Positions 1 through 5,118 of a stretch of DNA of 5,118 nucleotides are shown piece after piece. The notes beneath the pieces are model-generated. The model was not told the DNA's origin. It searched no databases and was given only the letters and a program-made list of their open reading frames with translations. Position 1 is the stretch's first letter. Every line of letters begins with the position of its first letter. Source of the stretch: a virus (Duplodnaviria > Heunggongvirae > Uroviricota > Caudoviricetes); the IMG/VR virus record IMGVR_UViG_3300039366_000147, positions 1 through 5,118 of that record; one strand, written 5' to 3'. The translations under genes were made by a program, and so were the position numbers.

Positions 1-644
1 GTATAGACACGAAAACCGCGCAGAAGGATAAGTTCGGCGCGGGTAAGAACGGTTTTACCCGTGGTAACCCCCAGACTGGCACGCCTGCCACCGATCTGGA
101 TGATGACTACTTTGATATGTTGCAGGAAGAACTCTGCAGCGTGGTGGAGGCATCCGGTGCCAGCCTGGAGAAGGCGCGGCACGACCAGTTGCTTACCGCG
201 CTTCGTGCGCTGCTGTTAAGCCGCAAGAATCCGTTTGGCGATATCAAATCGGATGGCACGGTGAAAACAGCTCTCGAAAACCTTGGTTTGGGAGAAGCGG
301 CGAAAAGGGATGTGGGTACAGGAGAAAATCAGATACCGGATATGTCAGCCTGGAAAAGAAATCCGAGTTCTAATCGCTGGAGAAAATTGCCTGATGGAAC
401 CATCATTCAAATGGGAATATCAGCATCAGGGCCATTAGGCTCACCTGTAAATATCACCCTGCCGATATCTTTCAGCAATACCAATTATTGTGTTGTTGCA
501 TCGTACGATAATGCACGGTCAGGTGTGTCAACAATGGTTAGTTTTGCAGCATTACCTGTTTCACCATCGCAATTTTCCCTGATGTCATCTGTGACTGAGC
601 AAGGAATAAATCCTTTTGCTTACTGGATTGCTTTTGGAGATTGA
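1..644 (+). CDS. Phage tail fibre protein, distal portion (5' end outside window; codons in phase from nt 3); the part after the crossover site is variable cassette 1
   Basis: Frame is open from the window edge to TGA at 642..644. It sits 3 nt upstream of a tail-fibre-assembly gene (GGAGA at 637..641, ATG at 648). The left crossover site lies in frame and encodes ENLGLGE. The gene-order logic is that of Mu S-U and e14 stf-tfa. Confidence 0.8.
271..296. repeat. Left crossover site of the invertible segment (gix/pix/hix-like, 26 bp)
   Basis: CTCTCGAAAACC-TT-GGTTTGGGAGAA. It matches the reverse complement of 2129..2154 at 21 of 26 positions, including a perfect 14-bp run (283..296 against 2129..2142). 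It has the AAACC-NN-GGTTT architecture I recall for Din-family sites. Confidence 0.7.
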
Positions 645-647
645 TAA

Positions 648-1067
648 ATGGACAGATACTTCTATTCACAAAAAGAAAATGGTTTTTTTACCGATTTAAA
701 TAAAGCACCTTCAGATGCTGTTGAGATAACCACGGATGAATGGCTATCACTACTGGATGGTCAGGATAATGGCATGAAAATAGTCAGCAATCAGGAGGGA
801 TATCCGGTTTTGACAGAGCAACCACCTTTATCAAAAGAAAACCTTATTGCATTGGCAGAGTTGAAAAAAGGAAAACTTATTAATGAAGCCAACGAGCACA
901 TGAACAGCAGGCAATGGCCTGGTAAAGCGGCTATTGGTCGTCTGAAAGGTGAGGAACTGGCGCAATATAATTTGTGGCTGGATTATCTGGACGCACTGGA
1001 GCTGGTCGATACTTCCAGTGCGCCAGATATTGAATGGCCTACGCCTCCGGCAGTTCAGGCCAGATGA
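648..1067 (+). CDS. Tail fibre assembly protein (Tfa/U-like chaperone)
   Basis: 139-aa ORF with the C-terminal motif DTSSAPDIEWP that I recognise from Tfa proteins. RBS GGAGA lies 6 nt upstream, directly coupled to the fibre gene. Confidence 0.8.
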   Translation: MDRYFYSQKENGFFTDLNKAPSDAVEITTDEWLSLLDGQDNGMKIVSNQEGYPVLTEQPPLSKENLIALAELKKGKLINEANEHMNSRQWPGKAAIGRLKGEELAQYNLWLDYLDALELVDTSSAPDIEWPTPPAVQAR

Positions 1068-1641
1068 TATCCGGCGCGGTGCTGGTATCTGTTACCGTCA
1101 CCGCGTCAATGTAATCCAGCACGGCGTTAAGTCGGGTTGTTTCTGCCTGCGTCAACTTCCGTCCGGCCTGCAATTTCAGTTGAATCAGACTAATGGAAGC
1201 CATTGCAGTATCAATCAGTGACTGACGTTGTGCTTCTGCCGCGTCTACTGCGGCGCTATGCTGTGCCTCGGTATCCGTCACCCATTTCTCACCATCCCAT
1301 TTATCGTATGGCGTTAACGGGGCGATAGTGGTTGTATTATCAGGGTAATCACCCGGAACTGTGATTTCTTTTGATTCTCCTGTTTCGGTGCTAAAGACGA
1401 TTTCACCGCGATGGTCTGGCACATATTCCCATGAGTTAAAATCTGCAGATCGGCAGATTGCATAACCAGCTTTGTATGCGCCTGGGGCATCTAAACAGGA
1501 ATATGCCGGAATGCCGACACCAATAGCAAGATATTCAGTTGAAGCTGAAATATATTCCCGACTCATGACATCAAAGTTATAAACAGTAATTTCTCCTGCC
1601 ATAGTGGCAATTAATTCACTGTTTAATTCTGCGTTATTCAT
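1039..1641 (-). CDS. Tail fibre assembly protein, second copy, for the alternative cassette
   Basis: 200-aa ORF ending in DTSTAPDIIWPELPEA, the same Tfa C-terminal motif. Its ATG (1641..1639) overlaps the stop of the upstream - strand fibre cassette by 1 nt. Its 3' end overlaps the + strand tfa by 29 nt. Confidence 0.8.
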   Translation of the reverse strand: MNNAELNSELIATMAGEITVYNFDVMSREYISASTEYLAIGVGIPAYSCLDAPGAYKAGYAICRSADFNSWEYVPDHRGEIVFSTETGESKEITVPGDYPDNTTTIAPLTPYDKWDGEKWVTDTEAQHSAAVDAAEAQRQSLIDTAMASISLIQLKLQAGRKLTQAETTRLNAVLDYIDAVTVTDTSTAPDIIWPELPEA

Positions 1642-2141
1642 TATGCAGCCCTCACGATATAGTTAAATGCAATATTCCGTGGACGGGTTTCATTTATCCC
1701 ATATGCTGTTGTTCTCTGATTCCCGACAAAATATCCATTTGGATTAGAAGATACAGAATAATCATCAAAATCAAGAGGGCTATCAGCACCCGGCGTCAGG
1801 CTTGCAATATATCCTCTTCCCATAACTTCTGATGCTGGTATTTCTTTTGTACGATAATCACTAACTCTGAAGAGCTGCCCTTGGTGGGTGTGTGATTCCA
1901 CTCCTCCATTCTGAAGACTTAGCAAGGCACGTACAGCATCAATACCACGCCCGTCATCCCAGCCACGAATAAACTCACCACGTAAATCAGGCAATTTATT
2001 TGTCGGATAAGCCTTTGCCAGTTCCGGGTATTCTTCAGCAGAAAAAGCGGCACCGTTGCATTCAGCCAGCCTGTTGGCGGAGTGGCTGAAGGCCACGGAA
2101 CAGGCACACCAACCGGTAATGCAGAGCCTTCTCCCAAACCA
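1641..2141 (-). pseudogene. Alternative tail-fibre distal cassette, promoterless, with an apparent -1 frameshift near 2060..2065
   Basis: Encodes a tail-collar-like motif (ECNGAAFSAEEYPELAKAYPTNKLPDLRGEFIRGWDDGRG) in the frame of the 189-aa ORF. The frame set by the crossover site is instead that of the 87-aa ORF (INVGLGEGSALPVGVPVPWPSATPPTGWL...), which stops at 1919. The two frames meet at TGGCTGAATGCAACGG. Confidence 0.6.
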
Positions 2142-2154
2142 ACGTTTATGAAAA
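2129..2154. repeat. Right crossover site of the invertible segment
   Basis: TTCTCCCAAACC-AA-CGTTTATGAAAA, about 55 bp upstream of the invertase ATG. It is the inverted partner of 271..296. Confidence 0.7.
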
Positions 2155-2208
2155 TGCAGAAATAACGAGCAAATGGCATCATTCCTGCTTTTGTCAGGGA
2201 GATCTACC

Positions 2209-2526
2209 ATGCTTATTGGCTATGTACGTGTGTCAACAAATGACCAGAACACAGATCTACAACGTAATGCGCTGAACTGTGCAGGATGCGAGCTGATTTT
2301 TGAAGACAAGATAAGCGGTACAAAGTCCGAAAGGCCGGGACTGAAAAAACTGCTCAGGACATTATCGGCAGGTGACACGCTGATTATCTGGAAACTGGAC
2401 TGGCTGGGATTATATAAAACCGCAGACACGTCGTATGCAAGAACGCGCTGCGGTTGGCTGGTAAAATTTTCGATAGTGCGAGTATTGAATGATTTCCAGC
2501 CGTTACAGATTTTACGTGCTAATTAG
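2209..2526 (+). pseudogene. Gin/Pin/Hin/Cin-family serine DNA invertase, truncated (family similarity ends at about codon 64)
   Basis: ATG at 2209 with GGGAGA RBS. The N-terminus MLIGYVRVSTNDQNTDLQRNAL...GDTLIIWKLD carries the catalytic-serine motif and closely matches my recollection of Pin/Gin. After WKLD (nt 2400) the frame continues 42 codons with unrelated sequence to TAG at 2524..2526. The resolvase core and helix-turn-helix are absent. Confidence 0.75.
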
Positions 2527-2732
2527 TGAACAAACCACTCGTCAGCAGACTCCCAGGTATCTTTCAGAGTCTCCTGCGGTGCGTGTAACAGAAAGCCCAT
2601 CATTGCTGGTGGCTTTTATGAGCACCTCCACATTGTCATAACGCTTACTGATGCGCCGAGTTAATTCTTTCTTTAACGCATCCACGGCACCGTTTGGCAT
2701 TTTTCTTTGGCTATGCAGATCTCAATGTACAT
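2523..2732 (-). pseudogene. DinI-family (SOS damage-inducible protein I-like) gene, apparently disrupted by two frame changes
   Basis: Three reading segments on the - strand resemble E. coli DinI as I recall it: [11 protein letters not shown], then in the -1 frame [42 protein letters not shown], then back in the first frame [15 protein letters not shown] followed by stop. The total length from ATG to TAA is 210 nt, which is in frame. Confidence 0.5.
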
Positions 2733-2737
2733 AAAAC

Positions 2738-2772
2738 CCCCTTGTTACTGTATGCGCACACAGTAACAAGGG
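2738..2772 (-). promoter_or_regulatory. Perfect 13-bp inverted repeat containing a CTGT-N8-ACAG LexA-box-like core (2748..2763); alternatively a hairpin terminator
   Basis: CCCTTGTTACTGT-(9 nt)-ACAGTAACAAGGG. It sits 5 nt upstream of the dinI-like ATG. On the - strand the stem is followed by GGTTTTAT. Confidence 0.4.
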
Positions 2773-2850
2773 AGCGTCTAAGTTGATCTTGCGGGTTGTA
2801 TAAGCTGGGATTTTTAATGGATTTTATCCTGATTATTTGGAGATAAAGTA

Positions 2851-2883
2851 CCTTAAAACCAGCATGAGAGACTGGTTTTAAGG
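2851..2883 (-). terminator. Perfect 12-bp stem, 9-nt loop hairpin downstream of the 437-aa ORF (possible terminator)
   Basis: CCTTAAAACCAG-CATGAGAGA-CTGGTTTTAAGG, about 85 nt 3' of the ORF stop on the - strand. The stem is AT-rich and there is no clean U-tract, so the assignment is weak. Confidence 0.3.
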
Positions 2884-2966
2884 AAAGAATTGAACCGATA
2901 ATGCTAAATGATATTGTAGTGCAACCTAGTTGGCTTGTTTATTTTTAATGATAAGTGAAAATAAAG

Positions 2967-4280
2967 CTAATCTATATCACTTAAAGTACCTTTAATTTCC
3001 CCTTGCTCAATATCCCCTAACCCAAGTTTACCTACTAATACATTACATTGCATGATGACTGAAACGGTCATATCTCGACCAGATACATCTTCCTCTTTAT
3101 AATGCTGTCCGCTTACATTTGCAGAAAGTTCAGCATAAAAACCATTATTAAAGTAGTATTGCTCAACAGTAATATCATCTATATTTTCAAAAATAGTGTC
3201 TGATTCTGCAATGGCACCTGAGACACCATCGCTATCAAAAGCATCAAATGGATTTTTTTCAAACTCCTCTCTGCATAACTCCGCAAGATGATCACCAGAA
3301 ATTAATTTAAATGGGATGTTGTCAAATAACATATCAAGATGATCAAAAATTAAATCTGCAGAAAAATCTTCATTGTCAGAGTTTTCTTCCAGCACTATTT
3401 GTTCAAGACGTTTGGCTAATTTGTCATCATAATAGACATATTTGACTTTGCTTAAAGTTTCATTATTGAAATTTTTGTCATCAAGAAGTTCATTAAAATC
3501 CGTATACCCAAAAAGTGAGGAGGCAATTAAACCTAATGTTTTAAGTGATACATGTATGTTGTCACTTCTGAGACTTTCATCTATTTTTAGCATGAGATAA
3601 TATGCAGATGGAAATCTATTGGATGCATGAACAGCTCTGGCTTTTGCACTATCGTTTTCAAATCTTATTTTTTCCAACTCTGCTTGTTTATTTTTTTTAT
3701 CTAGCTCAAGCTTTGATATTGATTCTTTGTTCTTTGCTGCTTGTGTTATAGCCTCTTGTTCTTCAGCTTTGCTTTTCGCTTCAATAGCCTTGACTTCCAG
3801 TCTCAAACTTCTTTGTCTTATATGTTCAAGTATTAATTTCCGTTTATCAATATCTTGCTGAACCAATTGTTCAAGAAATTGTTTGTTTGGATTAGTCCGT
3901 AATCTCTCTTTATTCAGTTCTTGTTGTTGCTTGATTTTTACTAATTCTATATCAATAGCCTGTTTATGTAGTTTCTTTTGAGATAAACTTTGTACTGTGT
4001 TAATAAAAAGAGAAAGCCATGGGAAAATAAATAAGTAAAAAGAGGCGGCAAGAAATGGGAAAACAAATAACTCATTCCACCCTAATATTGGCGTTCTTGA
4101 AATATACTCATAAAATAAGTTTATTCGCTCTGAAGTTTTTCCTTCACCCCAAAAAAGGAGAGATAGATGGTTCCAGTTACATATTAGCCATGAAAAAATA
4201 AAAGCGCCAACAAATGGATCGTTTATCTTGGTTTTAGCGTTTCCTGCTAACGAAGTAATTATATCATCTAAAAATTTCAT
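2967..4280 (-). CDS. Hypothetical protein, 437 aa: N-terminal membrane anchor, central coiled coil, acidic C-terminal domain; function unknown
   Basis: Longest ORF in the window, uninterrupted, in a visibly AT-rich block. GGTGA lies about 10 nt upstream of the ATG. Hydrophobic stretches at about residues 22-36 and 70-94, a K/E/Q-rich heptad-like region at about 100-210, and a D/E-rich C-terminal segment of about 220 aa. No family recognised. Confidence 0.75.
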   Translation of the reverse strand: MKFLDDIITSLAGNAKTKINDPFVGAFIFSWLICNWNHLSLLFWGEGKTSERINLFYEYISRTPILGWNELFVFPFLAASFYLFIFPWLSLFINTVQSLSQKKLHKQAIDIELVKIKQQQELNKERLRTNPNKQFLEQLVQQDIDKRKLILEHIRQRSLRLEVKAIEAKSKAEEQEAITQAAKNKESISKLELDKKNKQAELEKIRFENDSAKARAVHASNRFPSAYYLMLKIDESLRSDNIHVSLKTLGLIASSLFGYTDFNELLDDKNFNNETLSKVKYVYYDDKLAKRLEQIVLEENSDNEDFSADLIFDHLDMLFDNIPFKLISGDHLAELCREEFEKNPFDAFDSDGVSGAIAESDTIFENIDDITVEQYYFNNGFYAELSANVSGQHYKEEDVSGRDMTVSVIMQCNVLVGKLGLGDIEQGEIKGTLSDID

Positions 4281-4321
4281 TTTTTCAAAATCACCAATTG
4301 GTTATAATTAATATAATGGAT

Positions 4322-4349
4322 TGTGCAGTAAAATATAATTTACTGCACA
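4322..4349. promoter_or_regulatory. Perfect 11-bp inverted repeat with 6-bp AT spacer in the promoter region of the 437-aa ORF (candidate operator)
   Basis: TGTGCAGTAAA-ATATAA-TTTACTGCACA, 42-69 bp upstream of the ORF start codon. No adjacent T-tract on either strand, so it is not a terminator. Confidence 0.35.
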
Positions 4350-4992
4350 TCATTCTAGGTTTTTGCATAAAATGTTCAATTGTTTTCAAAGATAGCTCCT
4401 CAATTAATATATGACGACTTAAATATCACCATACTCTTGCTAATCATTGATTGCTTTTCAAGCGATAAACACCAAAAAATACCGTATAATATTCACTCAT
4501 TTTATCTGCGTAATCAACTCGGTCTGCAGCTGTTACACCTGAGCTTGTGAAACGTCAGAGTAATACGGTTTCTTTACGCATAGTATGCTGTTTATACAAT
4601 CTCCATGGGGAAGTTAATTGGTTATTAGGGGCACTTGTGTATAACGAACAACTAAAGATGACAAGCCATATGGTAAGTTGTATCCAGGCGGTTATTGAGA
4701 TGCTCTCTAATTATTAATGCAATGTCGACTTTGCGATATCTTCTTTCTTTGAGAATCGGGTTGCCGAATGCATGTGGTTGATCTTTGTGCTGTGTTTGTG
4801 TGGTGTATGATTTTTAATCGATTAATAATAAGAAATAATAGGGCTAAGATTGTTGTGTGTACAAATGGTTTTTGGTTACAAATACACCTACTGATCATGT
4901 TCTGCTATGCTCTGATACCTCCAAAATGTACAATCAGCGGCATGAATTTTTCTTTGTACATATGATTGTACATAATCAAAGAGACAACAATT

Positions 4993-5118
4993 ATGACAAG
5001 CCTTTTGGCCGCAGAGGTAGCGAAAAGAAGAACCTTTGCAATTATTTCTCACCCGGACGCCGGTAAGACTACCATCACCGAGAAGGTGCTGCTGTTCGGA
5101 CAGGCCATTCAGACCGCC
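4993..5118 (+). CDS. prfC: Peptide chain release factor 3 (RF3), N-terminal 42 codons; continues beyond the window
   Basis: Translation [42 protein letters not shown] contains the GTPase P-loop AGKT and matches the E. coli PrfC N-terminus apart from residues 3-8. AAAGAGA RBS lies 8 nt upstream. G+C rises sharply here. Confidence 0.9.

Follow-up and report, generated by a model that had tools for sequence, protein, structure and literature searches.

Can a prophage tail-fibre switch still turn when its own invertase gene is truncated and one of its two alternative cassettes has slipped out of frame? The question is raised by a 5118-nt stretch of DNA, referred to here as the window over its whole length, which a preliminary description took to hold a switch "doubly inactivated" by these two lesions. 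Both lesions proved to be there, in the cassette and in the pin gene lying in cis; for the switch itself inactivation is not borne out, both orientations being found in otherwise identical loci. We consider it very likely that the window holds a real inactivating frameshift, part of the decay of a cryptic e14-type prophage, in a switch that still flips, presumably by an invertase supplied in trans.

An e14-type invertible segment beside prfC

The window is E. coli DNA and matches contig QETO01000001.1 of GCA_003328175.1 (L011/L021) over its full length at 100% identity. Its gene order is that of the K-12 cryptic prophage e14 (ymfQ, stfP, tfaP, tfaE, stfE, pinE, cargo gene), Mu-like baseplate genes (gp44 to gp48/YmfQ) lie upstream in related loci, and intact relatives of the element possess full Mu-like tail modules together with an intact Pin. 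The element is a decaying, Mu-like-tailed cryptic prophage of the e14 family, whose insertion point in E. coli is the 5' end of prfC; e14, by contrast, lies at icd. The start of prfC in the window is prophage-borne: its first seven codons read MTSLLAA against MTLSPYL in K-12, and similarity to K-12 starts at position 5013, reaching only ~92% across the following 106 nt. This suggests that the element, on entering prfC at its 5' end, provides the gene with a new start and new sequence ahead of it, comparable to what e14 does at the other end of icd, the 3' end.

Positions 271-2154 constitute an e14-type invertible P segment with sites of the Gin/Hin/Cin/Pin type (Table 1). A 20-nt inverted repeat (278-297 and 2128-2147) falls within two 26-bp sites, which are inverted with respect to one another, have matching TT/AA cores, are identical to the sites of K-12 e14 (28/28 nt compared) and contain the repeat TTGGTTTGGGAGAAGG described for the e14 P segment (PMC12529663). 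Outside the segment lies the constant 5' part of the fibre gene, and inside it are two opposed 3' cassettes, each followed by an assembly gene, a layout that rests on Pfam matches to Gp53-like_C, Collar and, twice, Caudo_TAP. The ATG of the fibre gene is 7 nt upstream of the window (the start annotated in APEC E123, at L001 11994, corresponds to window position -6), and the constant part is ~98% identical to residues 4-100 of K-12 e14 StfP. In the orientation of the window the expressed gp53-like fibre is complete and intact at 216 aa, as is its chaperone; a 216-aa gene is called in both L011 and L021, and the gp53-like cassette aligns without gaps to that of E. coli TW14425. Relatives of the 200-aa assembly gene that accompanies the collar cassette are annotated tfaE.

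Besides gene order, crossover sites and constant part, the window and e14 have in common a collar-type alternative cassette beginning GLGEGSALPVGVPVPWPSATPPTGWLKCNGAAFSAEEYPELAKAYPTNKLPDLRGEFIRGWDDGRGID and a segment of similar length, ~1.85 kb here and 1797 bp as reported for e14 (PMC12529663). They differ in the distal halves of both cassettes, which are different variants from those of K-12 e14, in the state of the genes, K-12 stfE being in frame where the window has a 1-bp deletion in its collar cassette and a pin of ~65 codons, and in the cargo beside pin, a 437-aa ORF in place of mcrA. The Gin/G system of Mu, Cin/C of P1 and Hin/H of Salmonella likewise have 26-bp, imperfectly palindromic, inverted sites with a 2-bp core; in Mu and P1 it is likewise the C-termini of tail fibres that are switched, and the invertase gene abuts one site.

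Two features lie between the pin remnant and prfC. A LexA-box-like palindrome, TACTGTATGCGCACACAGTA (2746-2765), is found ~17 nt upstream of the start of the dinI-like gene. The 437-aa ORF has a GC content of 33%, a hydrophobic N-terminal part and a long central Lys/Glu-rich stretch; searches of Pfam and PADLOC gave no match to it, and PHROGs returned families of unknown function only. In relatives the cargo slot beside pin is filled by McrA, by a LEM-3-like GIY-YIG protein with EcoRII restriction-modification, or by GmrSD, and the 437-aa ORF is therefore, from its position in this slot, a candidate defence or exclusion gene.

Table 1. Coordinates of features in the 5118-nt window
Feature	Position	Strand	Basis or remark
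Constant N-terminal part of short tail-fibre gene	1..297	+	Translation; ends ...ALENLGLGE
Left 26-bp crossover site, CTCTCGAAAACC-TT-GGTTTGGGAGAA	271..296		Core dinucleotide 283-284; inverted repeat, identity to e14
gp53-like C-terminal variable cassette, expressed orientation	298..644	+	Pfam PF21882, E=4.9e-13
Tail-fibre assembly protein, 139 aa, partner of gp53-like cassette	648..1067	+	Pfam PF02413, E=2.3e-26
TfaE-like tail-fibre assembly protein, 200 aa, partner of collar cassette, intact	1039..1641	-	Pfam PF02413, E=1.7e-32
Alternative collar-type fibre cassette, silent orientation, pseudogene through 1-bp deletion	1641..2127	-	
Premature stop in crossover-site frame	1919..1921	-	ORF listing and translation
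Frameshift site, AA where relatives have AAA (Lys)	2061..2062	-	Alignment, allele scan
Right 26-bp crossover site, TTCTCCCAAACC-AA-CGTTTATGAAAA	2129..2154		Core 2141-2142; inverted repeat, identity to e14
pin serine-invertase remnant, ~65 codons including Ser10 region	2209..2404	+	
dinI-like pseudogene, two frameshifts	2542-2765	-	
437-aa ORF, AT-rich, function unassigned	2967-4280	-	
prfC start	4993-5118		

Reading frame of the collar cassette

The half-site that lies within the segment encodes GLGE, and the reading frame of a cassette is therefore set by the site. That the right crossover site fixes the frame, as had been assumed at the outset, agrees with the naturally inverted isomer in APEC E123 (GCA_030347035.1; L001, NZ_CP126955.1), in which the constant part reads straight through into the collar cassette. 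On the minus strand of the window the GLGE frame gives GLGEGSALPVGVPVPWPSATPPTGWL, continues as NATVPLF... and meets a stop at 1919-1921; direct translation of the frame continuous with GLGE yields GSALPVGVPVPWPSATPPTGWL followed by NATVPLFLLKNTRNWQ...VPC, and the ORF listed at 1919..2182 on this strand reads MMPFARYFCIFINVGLGEGSALPVGVPVPWPSATPPTGWLNATVPLF...VPC. The remainder of the tail-collar cassette, ECNGAAFSAEEYPELAKAYP...IVRAA, is carried by the -1 frame, the translation of which (ECNGAAFSAEEYPELAKAYPTNKLPDLRGEFIRGWDDGRGID...NIAFNYIVRAA) ends at 1641 and belongs to a minus-strand ORF of 189 aa at 1641..2210 (...RLAECNGAAFSAEEYPELAKAYPTNKLPDLRGEF...NYIVRAA). The ORF listing and the translations thus bear out the preliminary description, which had the crossover-site frame run to NATVPLF... 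and a stop at 1919, with the collar continuation in the -1 frame.

An alignment with E. coli TW14425 places a single-base gap in the window, which has GGCTGGCTG-AATGC against GGCTGGCTGAAATGC, and its codons now read CTG-AAT-GCA as opposed to CTG-AAA-TGC in relatives. The AAA allele is also present in FAM21845, VG35A2, EC05 and K-12 e14. The lesion shown by this single gap relative to AAA-bearing copies is the loss of one A from a Lys AAA codon, and the ancestral joint is WLKCNG. One base missing around 2060..2065 had been proposed as the cause of inactivation, and the gap at 2061-2062 is where it was expected; the restored joint had been given as LEC, however, which the relatives correct to WLKCNG.

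Comparison with collar proteins and with related prophages, both suggested earlier, supports this repair. With the A restored, the cassette matches the Pfam Collar family (PF07484) over the entire profile (1-57/57; 58.8 bits, cut-off 24; E=5e-16), which rules out coincidence, and its alignment with T4 gp37 (PDB 2XGF) is unbroken across the restored joint (E=4.5e-18), taking in the collar domain, the His-containing region and the NIAFNYIVR motif at the C-terminus. As it stands in the window the domain is, unlike T4 gp37 or the Pfam family, split over two frames: the Collar match is not continuous with the GLGE frame, being broken at 2061-2062 ahead of the stop, and the -1-frame ORF alone still has a precomputed Collar match. 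Identity of the restored translation reaches 100% with the intact cassette of an e14-like prophage that has an intact pinE (NZ_CP148277.1, L035) and 98% with that of a P2-like prophage that has an intact recombinase (NZ_CP159141.1, L034). Both of these cassettes, which show 99.8% DNA identity over 488 nt and have the same TfaE-type chaperone and crossover site, are annotated as intact tail proteins beside intact invertases; they are unlike the window in having AAA and an adjoining intact invertase, and the constant part in L034 is a long P2-type fibre. All relatives carry the AAA allele and encode the collar joint in one frame.

In the APEC E123 isomer, where the cassette is joined to the constant part, translation yields MHRIDTK...ENLGLGEGSALPVGVPVPWPSATPPTGWLNATVPLF...VPC*, a product of 170 aa in which the collar sequence breaks off behind ...PPTGWL and a tail of 46 unrelated residues follows; such a protein would be a stump without a receptor-binding domain. 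Given the frame break and the truncated product in the natural expressed isomer, the cassette is therefore a pseudogene of the Collar family rather than a working member.

Inversion behind a truncated pin gene

The truncation of the invertase, also remarked upon in the preliminary description, is extensive. About 65 of 184 codons are left, which leaves no HTH domain and little of the catalytic domain, and the Pfam Resolvase match covers profile positions 2-76 of 145 only. Relative to the intact pinE locus of strain CX07, an internal deletion of ~348 bp has taken nearly all of the 3' two-thirds of the gene. The deletion is a clean one (window 2404-2411 against L038 3889-4236), with codon ~65 now followed directly by the final bases of the gene. 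Over its first 170 nt the remnant, which begins 67 nt from the core of the site, does not differ from intact pinE. Every prfC-linked copy examined has this same gapless remnant, annotated in each by PGAP as "recombinase family protein, incomplete", and at neither crossover site of the window is there an adjoining functional serine invertase gene. Some of the prfC-linked copies with truncated pin have the AAA allele, and the truncation must therefore have come before the frameshift. In known systems the enhancer lies ~100 bp from a hix site (Hin) or within the invertase gene (Gin) (PMC3798978); from this we infer that the retained 5' part of pin may be where a Fis-bound enhancer would lie, Fis sites being too degenerate for an enhancer to be called there.

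Despite the state of pin, both orientations of the segment exist. Inverting exactly 298..2127 turns the window into the APEC E123 sequence, the two having no further difference in 5118 nt and a breakpoint within 283-297, the shared 15-nt core; by comparison between assemblies they are exact isomers of 100% identical sequence. The two orientations of the deletion allele occur in separate strains, E123 having a portal-gpP fusion that GCA_022975935.1 and L011 do not have. Both orientations are also seen for another set of cassettes that lies behind this truncated pin (L013/L018 against L014/L017). Since the pin deletion and the 1-bp deletion are both present in both isomers, inversion must, to judge from these sequences, have continued after the loss of pin and after the frameshift, unless each deletion arose twice.

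With the cis gene lost, an invertase supplied in trans would be the simplest cause of flipping, and the most likely catalyst is a Pin-family invertase of another prophage. Indeed, PinQ of prophage Qin has been shown by experiment to invert the e14 P segment in trans (PMC12529663). A chimeric anchor-plus-pin query, which gives the count alone (the best place per record being displayed), counted one further place in the E123 chromosome that resembles pinE in its 3' half; an anchor-only control found a single place. Unlike the Fis- and enhancer-dependent Gin, Cin and Hin systems, the present segment has had its resident invertase deleted, and any inversion of it must come from another locus. The invertases Gin, Cin and Hin are able to complement one another.

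The switch as a whole consists of a constant tail-fibre N-terminus, encoded outside the segment, and of two alternative C-terminal cassettes for receptor binding inside it, each accompanied by a chaperone. In this lineage one A is gone from the Lys codon in ...TGW-L-K-C-NG... of the collar cassette, and a flip of the segment to this cassette ends translation as the 170-aa stump. The orphaned segment would be flipped by an invertase encoded elsewhere in the genome.

The frameshift is best taken as a neutral lesion in a cryptic prophage that is decaying. Within the same few kilobases pin has lost ~348 bp and a dinI-like gene is broken by two frameshifts, and larger deletions differ from strain to strain, the portal-gpP fusion being found in E123 and a loss of baseplate genes in L015. 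In E123 (L001 8474-9397) the portal is fused to the C-terminal part of a gpP-like baseplate protein, with the head and tail-shaft genes all removed; in other carriers of the same frameshift the 359-aa gpP-like gene is intact. Alternatively, the pin-less segment could have been kept, as an "orphan" switch driven by the invertases of other prophages, for one output that benefits the host, with the collar cassette, being dispensable, left to decay, although this appears unlikely to us. The candidate for such an output would be the pin-proximal ORF fused to the gp53-like domain, which in the E123 isomer has 133 aa and is a putative counterpart of StfE2, which is reported to block adsorption of phage T2 in K-12 (PMC12529663), and if this were true the frameshift would mark a shift from a phage host-range switch to a host defence switch. 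What weakens the proposal is the merely distant relationship of the gp53-like variable part to its K-12 counterpart. A transfer of the StfE2 defence function by homology would be speculative, the gp53-like part being weakly similar to K-12 StfP and the overall figure of 59% owing nearly everything to the constant part.

The persistence of flipping might also be questioned altogether. The switch could be dead, its two isomers either predating the lesions or resulting from rare RecA-type recombination between the short repeats or from exchange of the segment between strains. Such a view draws on a cis invertase that is clearly non-functional, on VG35A2, a genome with the prfC-linked remnant which shows no other pin-like sequence, and on the uniform orientation, with the gp53-like cassette silent, of 8/8 complete RefSeq genomes that have the remnant. 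We nonetheless find it improbable, as it would have to accommodate an identical pin deletion and a derived 1-bp deletion in both isomers with 0 substitutions in 5.1 kb, a second cassette set in both orientations behind the same truncated pin, and breakpoints exactly in the crossover-site core, as well as the other pin-like gene fragment in E123 and the documented inversion in trans of this type of segment (PMC12529663).

Distribution of the deletion allele and implications

Continued inversion by an invertase acting in trans, as favoured here, leaves the reality of the missing base to be considered. Allele-specific megablast queries of 52 and 53 nt (gapped hits also appeared, and identity bands separated the alleles) found the deletion allele in one of 5,426 complete RefSeq E. 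coli genomes, that of APEC E123, and the exact 53-nt AAA version in 129 records among the same genomes. With 99% identity or more to the restored 488-nt cassette there were 43 records, and among those listed the match extends over the full 488 nt in all except E123 (487). PGAP flags the E123 copy as "frameshifted".

Proteins that exist only with the deletion allele served as markers for a lookup in a larger assembly collection. An 86-aa product, marking the deletion in the silent orientation, was found in 15 contigs, three ENA metagenome assemblies among them; the 189-aa -1-frame ORF was found in one further metagenome contig; and a separate C-terminal fragment, marking the deletion in the expressed orientation, in 3 contigs (E123, one similar to it, and GCA_022975935.1). 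The deletion allele is thus carried by at least 18 contigs from NCBI isolate and ENA short-read metagenome assemblies, in both orientations, a support that consists of agreement between assemblies, some of which may be clonal relatives sequenced by similar methods. Apart from orientation these contigs are 100% identical to the window. Because the allele recurs across assemblies, the deletion is very unlikely to be a read error, and we regard it as a real, inherited, lineage-specific mutation. A contig from ENA ERZ784227 (NODE_148, L022) matches window positions 879 to 5118 at 99.8% and leads leftward into a different assembly gene and gp53-like cassette, beyond which lie a second crossover site, one more resolvase in truncated form and a GmrSD gene. 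Either two e14-like remnants have recombined here or the contig is a chimera of the assembly.

That the cassette is intact in reality, a base having been dropped from a short homopolymer in sequencing or assembly, could be argued from the 1-nt difference in length of an A run and from the presence of the allele in a single complete genome, yet this is very hard to credit for a run of just 3 nt, with the same allele repeated over so many isolate and metagenome contigs in both segment orientations and limited to one sequence-identical lineage, as an inherited mutation would be. There is likewise very little chance that the frameshift is tolerated or used, whether by ribosomal recoding or through a functional 189-aa ORF (1641..2210), for while gene callers do call this ORF, its Collar match persists and activities have been reported for ORFs starting pin-proximal in the e14 segment (PMC12529663), the joint GGC UGG CUG AAU GCA offers neither an X XXY YYZ slippery heptamer nor a long homopolymer (both were sought in GGCUGGCUGAAUGCAACGG), none of the relatives, all of which encode the joint directly, shares the break, and the ORF, confined to one orientation and one lineage, has 49 unrelated residues in place of the first collar strands (LPVGVPVPWPSATPPTGWLK).

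The relatives place the locus in a wider traffic of cassettes. In the P2-like prophages L031 and L034 the cassettes, chaperones and crossover sites are those of e14-like, Mu-tailed prophages, attached to constant fibre parts that are much longer. The occurrence of common cassettes in e14-like and P2-like prophages indicates that invertible segments are exchanged freely between unrelated tail modules.

Each feature of the locus belongs to known biology, the e14-type P segment standing here in a new place in the chromosome, and the frameshift had already been flagged publicly; there is no new mechanism or family here. For annotation, the appropriate label for the collar cassette is that of a pseudogene due to a 1-bp deletion; the 189-aa and 86/87-aa ORFs called there are artefacts to which this deletion has given rise. 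Recent work on the e14 P segment has dealt with its cross-prophage control, and the locus agrees with it. As a clean natural example, it represents an invertible segment that flips on after its own invertase has been deleted, such that a "truncated recombinase" need not be equated with a "locked switch".
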